Shown here piece by piece: positions 26,401 through 39,848 of a DNA stretch of 64,000 nt; the stretch's first letter is position 1, and every line of letters starts with the position of its first letter. This DNA is from Marinovum sp. (GTDB lineage Bacteria; Pseudomonadota; Alphaproteobacteria; Rhodobacterales; Rhodobacteraceae), in the NCBI RefSeq assembly GCF_048263515.1, contig NZ_JBLXEC010000018.1:20420-84419 (forward strand), given 5' to 3'. The notes under the pieces were generated by a model that saw only the letters and a list, made by a program, of their open reading frames with translations, did not search any database and was not told where the DNA came from. Both the position numbers and the translations under genes were made by a program.

Positions 26401-26423
26401 GGTGGGGTGGAACCCCACCCTAC
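26401..26423 (-). repeat. Isolated REP of the RAYT family
   Basis: Reverse complement GTAG-GGTGGGGT-TCC-ACCCCACC. Confidence 0.85.
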
Positions 26424-36563: not shown

Positions 36564-36748
36564 GGCGGTGTCCCTCTTCGGTTCGGGGTGATGGCGGTCT
36601 CGGAGCCTTTGCCGCAGCGACAAGGTCCGCGGCAGGTTGGCAACGCGCGAGCCGGGCTTCGGTTCCCTTGCGGAAGCGCGGTCTCTGGGCAGGGCGCGCG
36701 GGGTGGTGTAGCCTCGGGCCGAACAGCAGTTTTCAGAGGCAGAGCAAC

Positions 36749-37132
36749 ATGACAGAGACCCAATCGGCGCCGGACGGAGAGCTGACCCTGCGCACGCTGG
36801 CAATGCCGGCCGACACCAACGTCAACGGCGACATCTTCGGCGGCTGGGTGCTGAGCCAGATGGACATGGCCGCCGGCATCGTCGCCGGCGAAAAGGCGCA
36901 GGGCCGGGTGGCCACCATCGCCGTCGACGCGATGAAGTTCATCCGCCCGGTCAAGGTGGGCGACGTGCTCTGCGTCTACTGCCACATCGCGCGGGTGGGC
37001 CGGACCTCGATGGCGATCGAGGTCGAAGCCTGGGTCCGCCGCGAGCGCATGGGCATGCGCGAGAAGGTGACCGAGGCGATCTTTACCTTCGTGGCGATCG
37101 ACGGCGACGGGAGACCGCGCGAGGTCCCGTAG
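36749..37132 (+). CDS. Acyl-CoA thioesterase (YciA-like hotdog fold)
   Basis: MPADTNVNGDIFGGWVLSQMD. Confidence 0.92.
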   Translation: MTETQSAPDGELTLRTLAMPADTNVNGDIFGGWVLSQMDMAAGIVAGEKAQGRVATIAVDAMKFIRPVKVGDVLCVYCHIARVGRTSMAIEVEAWVRRERMGMREKVTEAIFTFVAIDGDGRPREVP

Positions 37133-37185
37133 GGTGGGTTTCCAACCCACCTTTTCGGGCGCGGTGGGTTGAAAACCCACCCCGC
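37129..37185. repeat. Inverted REP pair (REPIN-like) upstream of RAYT
   Basis: GTAGGGTGGGTTTCCAACCCACC (37129-37151) and reverse GGTGGGTTGAAAACCCACCCCGC (37163-37185). Confidence 0.9.
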
Positions 37186-37225
37186 GGTTACCTCGTGTTA
37201 ATCGCTTTTCGGGCAGTTTCGGCGC

Positions 37226-37837
37226 ATGCCGAACTACATTCGCCCGAAGGCCAGAGGGGCCACCATCTTCTTCACCGTCGCCCTCGCACAGCGCGGCGCG
37301 ACGCTTCTGACCGACGAGATCGAGCTGCTGCGCGATGCCGTCAGGGTCACCCGCGCGCGCCGGCCCTTTGTGATCGAGGCCTGCGTGGTGCTGCCGGACC
37401 ACCTGCACATGCTCTGGACCCTGCCATCTGACGATAGCAATTATTCCGACCGCTGGGGCGCGATCAAGGCGCGGTTCTCCAAGAGGGTGCGGCTGAAGCG
37501 GGGGGATGCGGTGGGTTGCAAACCCACCCTACGAGAGGCGGCGTCGTCCGGTTCTGCCCGCTCTGACGTAGAGCGACTGAGGGCGCGCCGCTCGGCCAGT
37601 AAGGTGAAGAAGCAGGACGCCGGCATCTGGCAGCGGCGGTTCTGGGAGCATCACATCCGCGACCGCACCGACTTGGAAAACCACATCAGGTGTTGCTGGG
37701 GCAATCCGGTAAAACACGGGCTGGTCGAGAGGCCGGTGGATTGGCGGTATTCCTCGATCCATCGCGATGTGCGGCTGGGGCGGGTGGAGCCGGAGTGGCG
37801 CTGCGGCGATCTGCGCGACATGTTCGGAGAGCCGTAG
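37226..37837 (+). mobile_element. REP-associated tyrosine transposase (RAYT/TnpA-REP); catalytic Tyr apparently replaced by Cys
   Basis: FFTV, HUH motif PDHLH, WQRRFWEHHIRD, NPVKHG, DWRYSS; flanked by REPs. Confidence 0.92.
37510..37532 (-). repeat. REP embedded in-frame within the RAYT CDS
   Basis: Reverse complement GTAG-GGTGGGTT-TGC-AACCCACC; encodes VGCKPTL. Confidence 0.9.
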
Positions 37838-38005
37838 GGTGGGTCTGTGACCCACCGCAGCGGGGCATTAGGCACGGGGCAAGCCCGCGAGATAACCCCG
37901 TAGGGTGGGTCTGTGACCCACCATGCCGCGGAGCTTCCGCCAAGGCGGTGGGTTGAAAACCCACCCTACGGGCCGCATCGGGTGCGCCGAGACGGCGCAC
38001 CCTGT
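37834..38005. repeat. REP cluster downstream of RAYT
   Basis: GTAGGGTGGGTCTGTGACCCACC at 37834-37856 and 37900-37922; reverse REP 37947-37969; variant hairpin GGGTGCGCCG-AGA-CGGCGCACCC 37980-38002. Confidence 0.9.
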
Positions 38006-38008
38006 ATC

Positions 38009-39664
<1,656 letters not shown>

Positions 39665-39776: not shown

Positions 39777-39848
39777 GGTGGGTTACAAACCCACCCTACG
39801 GTGAAGCGCACGACGGACAGGACGGGTAGGGTGGGTTTGCAACCCACC
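39777..39848. repeat. Divergent REP pair between ettA and MOSC gene
   Basis: Reverse REP 39777-39799 and forward GTAGGGTGGGTTTGCAACCCACC 39826-39848. Confidence 0.9.

Follow-up and report, generated by a model that had tools for sequence, protein, structure and literature searches.

The 64,000-nucleotide stretch of a Marinovum sp. genome analysed here (contig NZ_JBLXEC010000018.1, positions 20,420 to 84,419; G+C content 66%; referred to as a whole as the window, whose numbering is used throughout) contains, on its plus strand at 37226-37837, a gene for a 203-residue REP-associated tyrosine transposase (RAYT, or TnpA-REP), and within the reading frame of this gene lies a complete copy of the repetitive extragenic palindrome (REP) found on either side of it. 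The gene product matches the NCBIfam equivalog NF047646 (REP_Tyr_transpos; E=3e-47, 160 bits against a cutoff of 80), residues 3-176 spanning all 146 profile positions with about 28 residues extra, and aligns to Escherichia coli TnpA-REP (PDB 4ER8; E=8.6e-36) in two blocks, query residues 2-91 corresponding to chain residues 2-91 and query residues 133-199 to chain residues 92-157; a Pfam profile search of the protein returned no match. The best Foldseek match of the AlphaFold model is 4er8_A (E=2e-15, TM 0.85), followed by the ISDra2, IS200 and IS608 transposases, and the modelled fold is that of a Y1 HUH endonuclease. The HUH motif, H59-L60-H61 (37400-37408, plus strand), aligns with H59-M60-H61 of 4ER8 and is invariant in the alignment of homologs, and the alphaD ligands are present as N160 and H164, equivalent to N119 and H123 of 4ER8. 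The catalytic tyrosine is absent: both alignment and motif scan place Cys156 (TGT, 37691-37693, plus strand) at the position of Y115, which is catalytic in E. coli TnpA-REP (PMC3479197, PMC8266576) and was replaced to give the Y115F catalytic mutant used in PMC8266576. By motif scan, tyrosine occupies this position in 105 of the 120 closest homologs (52-89% identical, Rhodobacteraceae wherever the source names the organism, and many of them metagenome contigs; homologous proteins and loci carry P and L numbers below), including the 89%-identical P0002, with histidine, phenylalanine or cysteine in about nine others and the remaining non-tyrosine calls being off-target pattern matches. The window protein is, on its sequence, a RAYT by descent that is probably not an active nuclease.

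The original prediction for this region held that a complete REP lies in reverse orientation within the RAYT coding sequence, between the HUH region and the motif WQRRFWEH, and that it contributes peptide sequence to the enzyme. Our analysis bears this out, every detail of the element at 37510-37532 proving correct. Positions 37510-37528 of the plus strand read GGTGGGTTGCAAACCCACC, an 8-bp stem closed by a 3-nt loop, and are followed by CTAC at 37529-37532; read on the minus strand, the element is GTAGGGTGGGTTTGCAACCCACC, i.e. GTAG-GGTGGGTTTGCAACCCACC, and has both the palindrome and the GTAG at one end that together constitute a full GTAG-tagged REP. Unlike such REPs in general, which are extragenic, the internal copy lies in frame within the RAYT open reading frame (ORF), where the codons GTG GGT TGC AAA CCC ACC CTA encode V96-G-C-K-P-T-L102 without breaking the frame, after H59/H61 and before WQRRFWEH at residues 135-142. 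Codon alignment further reveals, at 37541-37564 on the plus strand, the decayed remnant of a partner REP in forward orientation, which would have formed an ancestral tail-to-tail pair with the first: the window reads GCG TCG TCC GGT TCT GCC CGC TCT where L083, L084 and L001 read CGT AGG GTG GGT TTG CAA CCC ACC. This state, with the first REP intact and the second decayed, is shared by the window, P0002, P0003 and P0004. With one REP intact, the linker of the window gene does not hold the inverted pair folding into one long hairpin that characterises REP doublets forming hairpins (REPINs) and bacterial interspersed mosaic elements (BIMEs), and its lone hairpin, as single-stranded DNA, reaches -8.2 kcal/mol (z about -2).

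The internal copy belongs to a family that is locally abundant. The motif GGTGGGTnnnnnACCCACC occurs eight times in the 64-kb window, within which copy number was counted, against 0.03 copies expected, and none of 100 shuffles reached eight; of the other seven, all extragenic, five are no more than about 130 bp from the RAYT gene and two are about 2 kb downstream. REPs at 37129, 37163, 37834, 37900 and 37947 flank the gene, which is the arrangement that defines a REPtron. Upstream, the thioesterase gene has as its stop codon the TAG (37130-37132) of a GTAG-tagged REP on the plus strand (37129-37151), an element conserved in L081 and L082, and a REP hairpin without an intact tag, found by motif and hairpin scans, lies at 37163-37181 (strand not assigned). 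Downstream, the TAG (37835-37837) of a plus-strand GTAG-tagged REP of the GTCTGTGAC variant (37834-37856) is the RAYT stop codon itself, and a GTAG-tagged REP beginning exactly at this codon is found at most of the Rhodobacteraceae RAYT loci examined; the same two scans place a further GTAG-tagged REP at 37900-37922 on the plus strand and a CTAC-tagged REP, in reverse orientation and assigned to the minus strand, at 37947-37969. An extragenic tail-to-tail REP pair at 39777-39848 (strand not assigned) is of the same unit type as the pairs that occur inside homologous RAYT genes. That the internal element should be a chance resemblance or an assembly artefact is an explanation to which we attach practically no weight, given the eight motif copies against 0.03 expected and the recurrence of the same element at the same codon in independent assemblies (NCBI, ENA, JGI and Logan).

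Nor is the element a sporadic insertion absent from relatives, the outcome that the original prediction had named as the one to count against it. A REP-derived peptide occupies the same linker in 100 of the 120 closest homologs, an inverted REP pair being the usual form, and the survey for peptides of the VG.{1,2}PTL type that had been proposed finds VG..PTL or RVG..PT at this position in most relatives. Genes of the tail-to-tail class, which includes the window, encode VGxKPTL and, about 12 residues on, RVGxQPT, from a reverse REP followed by a forward REP with the tags inside; those of the head-to-head class encode GRVGFxPT ... VGWNPTL, from a forward and a reverse REP with the tags outside. 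Other linkers hold single copies, or the peptides RRPGFSPA ... AGLKPGL or RRAGFxPP ... GGVNPAL. The DNA of the RRPGFSPA class is a head-to-head pair of other palindromes (GGCGGGCTTCAGCCCGCC with GCCGGGCTGAAGCCCGGC), and that of an RRAGFSPP ... AGVNPGL form is a head-to-head pair of GGCGGGGT.. with GCCGGGGT..; further palindrome families in the linker comprise GGTGGGGT.., GGTGGGCAG..CTGCCCACC and GTCGGGGT.., and the cassette types include GGTGGGTT in tail-to-tail and GCCGGGCT in head-to-head arrangement. At the DNA level, linkers contain 42 hairpins tagged with GTAG or CTAC across 26 loci. This comparison used at least about 35 Rhodobacteraceae loci, the other matches listed being distant RAYTs that share WQRRFWEH, and the RAYTs of other taxa among the matches listed for the 165 loci sampled have linkers of 19-22 residues and no such hairpins. 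Intact pairs are present in L083, L084, L085, L024, L011, L007, L009, L166, L168, L170 and L171; that of L083 forms a 24-bp stem of -32 kcal/mol (z = -8.4), and those of L085 and L024 reach -25 to -31 kcal/mol. The idea that the plain 20-residue linker is itself a REP remnant found no support, the DNA of L172 having only a weak 4-bp complementarity.

The best-conserved block of the gene lies inside its least conserved region. Six genes with the same REP variant show 0 of 21 differences across the REP (codons 96-102) in 15 of 15 pairs, and in the same six genes divergence is 24-47% for the remainder of the linker and 12-32% for the catalytic core. The codons GTG GGT .. .. CCC ACC CTA are identical in all seven of seven tail-to-tail-class genes, third-position identity being 1.00 in the REP codons compared with 0.51 in 72 other invariant-residue columns, and across the long ORFs of the window CTA accounts for 0.6% of leucine codons, GGT for 11% of glycine codons and AAA for 16% of lysine codons. 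The residues adjoining the peptide are those that the tags permit: PTL is followed by R, P, Q or H in 68 of 70 cases, all with codons (CGN for R) that begin with the C required by CTAC, and RVG is preceded by G, R, C or S in 58 of 59, all with an available codon ending in the GT required by GTAG. Moreover, GGTGGGGTGGAACCCCACC is read in different frames, as VGWNPT in L086 and L087 and as GGVEPHP in L093, and the two arms of the GC-rich head-to-head class lie in frames 2 and 0. On the basis of codon invariance, rare codons, tag-dictated neighbours and frame differences we rejected protein function as the main constraint keeping VGxKPTL; conservation in these sequences is that of the DNA, and the encoded peptide looks like a passenger. 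Stem positions 2, 3, 7 and 8 vary among internal copies with Watson-Crick pairing almost always kept, although kept pairing alone is no proof of selection on the internal copies, because any copy of a working REP should show it. Stepwise compensation at an orthologous internal REP was considered and rejected, since the L084 variant GTCACAGAC is an existing other REP subfamily and replacement is the likelier event.

Internal copies also follow the REP family of their own locus. For the 17 loci that have tagged hairpins both inside and outside the gene (some of them close relatives, but representing at least five stem families), the internal stem differs from the nearest external stem of the same locus by a mean of 1.04 mismatches over 7 positions; with loci permuted the mean is 2.40 +/- 0.30, and none of the 5000 permutations gave a distance as low as that observed. 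The proposed check of internal REPs against the local REP variant therefore comes out in favour of a match, with exceptions that are taken up below.

The content of the linker turns over between close relatives. On a tree of 180 RAYT proteins the linker classes are intermixed and 67 changes of class are needed, and the turnover holds independently of this tree because direct DNA comparisons show deletions and a cassette swap. P0014 and P0032 are about 95% identical, and P0032 is without a 99-nt segment that holds both REPs; the gap is flanked by a 7-nt direct repeat, CCGATTG (filled and empty alleles L166 353-1000 and L167 112-660, respectively), which fits a slippage deletion, a target duplication being less likely. 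Between P0042 and P0030 a 60-nt deletion has left half a REP. P0033 and P0059 were recovered from one metagenome sample and have the same gene neighbourhood; core identity is about 92%, and their linkers hold two wholly different cassettes of about 100 nt, the one a GGTGGGTT tail-to-tail pair and the other a GGCGGGC/GCCGGGC head-to-head pair, and the REPs flanking P0059 are of the same family as its internal pair. A single ancient, vertically inherited insertion was rejected because the classes are intermixed on the tree and genes that are 92-95% identical differ by deletion or swap. Judged from these alignments, the linker is a hot spot at a fixed place, whose content has repeatedly been lost and replaced. 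The same differences might instead reflect mosaic alleles, produced by homologous recombination of RAYT alleles or paralogs at the IKARFS and IWQRRFWEH blocks, in which case REPs would have entered the linker a few times, long ago, with REP mobility at the site uninvolved. Whilst the boundaries of the P0033/P0059 swap do lie in conserved coding sequence on both sides, the linker classes are scattered over the tree, and RAYT paralogs can coexist in one genome (e.g. P0026 and L029 in Marivita hallyeonensis), recombination of this kind leaves unexplained both the identity of the internal REP to the current variant and its match to the flanking family, and the deletions in P0032 and P0030 are local events. 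We consider it improbable as a full alternative; it is compatible with the explanation that we prefer, as one mechanism of turnover.

In the protein, the linker (residues 86-133; 37481-37624, plus strand), which evolves faster than the rest of the gene and is the REP hot spot, connects helix alphaC to strand beta4. The extra segment relative to 4ER8 comprises the 41 residues 92-132, holds the REP, and is inserted between the equivalents of K91 and N92. The AlphaFold model, built from a 45-sequence alignment, has a mean predicted local distance difference test score (pLDDT) of 77.6, with most of the core above 90; scores are below 50 for residues 96-112, which comprise the REP-coded peptide and the part derived from the decayed partner, and this stretch lies between helix 73-92 (alphaC) and strand 138-143. 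The model thus suggests that the REP-coded peptide is probably disordered and the linker a permissive surface site. In the 4ER8 complex, the REP hairpin contacts R46, R78, K81, K82, Q83, T85, H86, K91 and R97 of alphaB/alphaC, and alphaC enters the hairpin's minor groove (PMC3479197); because it falls between the K91 and N92 equivalents, the insertion point is within the hairpin-binding surface.

This location bears on the possibility that the internal pair acts as a linked master copy or specificity cassette, which would seed the REP population of the genome and link the enzyme physically to its substrate: from its place where the hairpin-binding helix ends, the peptide encoded by the REP would help to set the REP family that is recognised, and a swap would alter the substrate and, with it, the recognition loop. 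An insertion point flanked by the equivalents of two hairpin contacts, K91 and R97, at the end of alphaC (PMC3479197) is consistent with such a role, as are the whole-linker swap between P0033 and P0059, with the flanking REPs of P0059 matching its internal pair, and the agreement of internal and external families across at least five families. However, the peptide encoded by one and the same REP DNA varies with the reading frame and is predicted to be disordered, RAYTs without the insert are associated with equally diverse REP families, internal and external families disagree at L168/L169 and L087, and the comparisons indicate no direction of copying. We therefore regard this role as unlikely, and judge in the same way the wider proposal that the Rhodobacteraceae RAYT frame carries its cognate REPIN as a functional, co-evolving cassette, whether as linked master copy, as self-recognition site or as both. 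Were it true, swapping the cassette of about 100 nt would re-specify the REP family propagated by the REPtron, a physical coupling of enzyme and substrate that is undescribed for any transposase.

The original prediction also proposed that the enzyme could bind or cut its own gene or mRNA and so bring about feedback control or self-mobilisation, both of them conjectural. Cutting of its own gene is unlikely in the strain of the window, where Cys156 takes the place of catalytic Y115, and binding of its own mRNA is weakened as a proposal in that the transcript presents the hairpin followed by CUAC (the inverse, or iREP, orientation), the GTAG form being on the template strand. E. coli TnpA-REP requires a 5' GTAG on single-stranded DNA and shows no detectable binding to the inverse orientation as DNA (PMC3479197). 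Because of Cys156 and the non-bound orientation in mRNA, the feedback idea loses ground in this strain. GC skew is positive across the window, a weak hint that lagging-strand synthesis uses the plus strand as template, in which case that template would carry the non-GTAG orientation; we give this point little weight. Our search for RNA runs with the RAYT gene found none that contained it; four marine metagenome DNA runs held at most 17% of the sampled words.

A more general form of the same idea is that the internal REP, or pair, is a self-limiting cis element, selected because it lowers RAYT expression or activity. This could come about through a hairpin in the mRNA or in non-template DNA that causes stalling, processing or premature 3' ends, or through binding of RAYT to its own single-stranded gene, and either route would hold down the level of a nuclease that is potentially dangerous. 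Such an element would account for the invariance of the REP in an otherwise fast-evolving linker; REP pairs do form long stems (L083, L085, L024), and the match of internal copies to the flanking family is expected if recognition by the cognate RAYT matters. E. coli TnpA-REP has been described as auto-inhibited and severely down-regulated (PMC3479197), and effects of REPs on mRNA stability and translation are reported in the background sections of PMC3733652 and in a reference cited in PMC5581495. Yet intact RAYT ORFs exist from which the pair is cleanly deleted (P0032, P0030), and whole RAYT clades with the plain 20-residue linker are still REP-flanked. The window itself has just one 8-bp hairpin (-8.2 kcal/mol, z about -2), an mRNA in the orientation that E. 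coli TnpA-REP does not bind as DNA, and an enzyme without the catalytic tyrosine. Self-limitation as the reason for the element is accordingly a tentative possibility, and a doubtful one for the window.

The presence of internal REPs, their generality, their conservation at the DNA level, their family matching and their turnover are matters of observation. As an explanation for them we favour, with a probability of roughly one half, that the internal REP is a genuine member of the local family residing in a permissive linker, where the palindrome is maintained, the peptide is a passenger and the content turns over as a cassette. The linker of Rhodobacteraceae RAYT genes would then be a hot spot, usually occupied by an inverted REP pair (REPIN- or BIME-like) of the flanking family; in the lineage of the window there would at the start have been a tail-to-tail pair, of which the first REP was kept intact and the second decayed. 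Survival of the insertions may be owed to the permissive site together with an in-frame filter, and whatever force conserves the flanking REPs of the REPtron may also hold the internal copies to the current REP variant. Linker content would be deleted or replaced as a cassette over short evolutionary distances, and for this reason internal copies would share the turnover and homogenisation of extragenic REPs. A dedicated function would be unnecessary, although a modest self-limiting effect on RAYT expression may exist.

We favour the peptide as passenger because deletion alleles occur in nature, the reading frame differs between lineages and disorder is predicted; functional rivals are kept alive because the REP is actively maintained and sits in the DNA-binding surface. 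Several points weigh against our preferred explanation. That the REP is invariant where the gene otherwise evolves fastest speaks for active maintenance, since a pure passenger would decay as the second copy in the window has done, and a site between DNA-contacting K91 and R97 is unlikely to be neutral and also admits a functional reading. The preferred explanation does not account for why the linker should be the hot spot. Family matching fails at L168 and L169 (the P0042 and P0030 loci), where the pair inside the gene is of the GGTGGGTT family and the REPs outside it are of the GGCGGGG family, and the internal and external families of L087 also mismatch. Finally, the GGVNPAL class (C3) is known from peptides alone, and the tree is a quick IQ-TREE reconstruction from 154 columns, with the linker columns removed.

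Further observations concern the surroundings of the gene and REPs elsewhere in the window. An ettA-like ABC-F gene adjoins RAYT in the window, L082 (Marinovum), L083 (Maliponia), L084, L168 and L171, and this stable neighbourhood points to vertical inheritance of the RAYT locus. The wider neighbourhood (36668-39664 in the window) is kept across genera, a 4HBT thioesterase or DUF2938 gene being often near. Comparison of the stop-codon REP in the window (37838-37856) and in L081 (5745-5763) reveals a paired stem change (GGGTCTGTGACCC versus GGGTTTGTAACCC) with the hairpin kept. Some RAYT ORFs extend into the downstream REPs (P0021, P0031, P0037, P0067; L021, L089) and acquire C-terminal tails such as VGWKPTLH...RVGL, so that REP-coded peptide is also found at the C-terminus of some RAYTs. 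At 26401-26423 the window holds a CTAC-tagged REP of the GGTGGGGT..CCCCACC subfamily, a variant also present in RAYT genes of the Tateyamaria type, where it makes up the second arm of the internal head-to-head pairs.

Beyond the window, the internal REPs bear on how RAYTs and REP or REPIN populations remain matched over the long term and on the low activity of RAYTs, and they identify in the linker of this Y1 HUH enzyme a place naturally permissive for insertions. Such internal copies will escape annotation pipelines, and tools for finding REPINs, whose search is confined to extragenic space. Full-text and term searches of the literature on RAYT/REP systems returned no description of REPs or REP pairs inside RAYT reading frames; what is known are REPtrons with REPs outside the RAYT gene, in-frame intragenic REPs in unrelated genes (PMC3733652, PMC3333891, PMC3116915, PMC5581495) and REPs that overlap the ends of RAYT genes (PMC3733652).

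Among known systems, the locus is closest in organisation to the REPtrons (Nunvar 2010; Ton-Hoang 2012, PMC3333891; Bertels and Rainey 2011, PMC3116915), in which a single RAYT gene has GTAG-tagged REPs on both sides and REP families co-vary with RAYT, and it is syntenic across genera beside the ABC-F gene. It differs in that REPs of REPtrons are described outside the gene or overlapping its ends (PMC3733652), whereas here they are also in frame, in a fixed linker. The fold, the HUH motif and the N119/H123 equivalents are those of E. coli TnpA-REP bound to its REP hairpin (4ER8; Messing 2012, PMC3479197), as is the substrate architecture of a hairpin with a 5' GTAG, but the window protein is distinguished by its 41-residue REP-holding segment and by cysteine in place of Y115.

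Translation of IS200 tnpA is repressed by an mRNA stem-loop. The IS200/IS605 elements resemble the present system in having a Y1 HUH enzyme, a transcript with a stable hairpin related to the element ends, and low expression; the hairpins of IS200, however, lie in untranslated or terminal regions and not in frame in the middle of an ORF, and any regulatory effect of the hairpin on the RAYT gene would be hypothetical. Tolerance of palindromic repeats in frame is itself familiar from intragenic REPs and Rickettsia palindromic elements, which are often dimers encoding 20-30 residues within functional genes (Di Nocera 2013, PMC3733652, and the literature on the Rickettsia elements cited there). Their hosts are various unrelated genes, with replication and repair genes frequent among them, and the insertions are interpreted as tolerated; here, in contrast, the host is the cognate transposase, one site is used across a bacterial family, and what this site contains is both subject to turnover and matched to the REP family of the locus. 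What sets the Rhodobacteraceae RAYT genes apart is the combination of a REP pair of the locally used family, placed at the DNA-hairpin-binding surface of the enzyme, with turnover of the pair as a cassette between close relatives.

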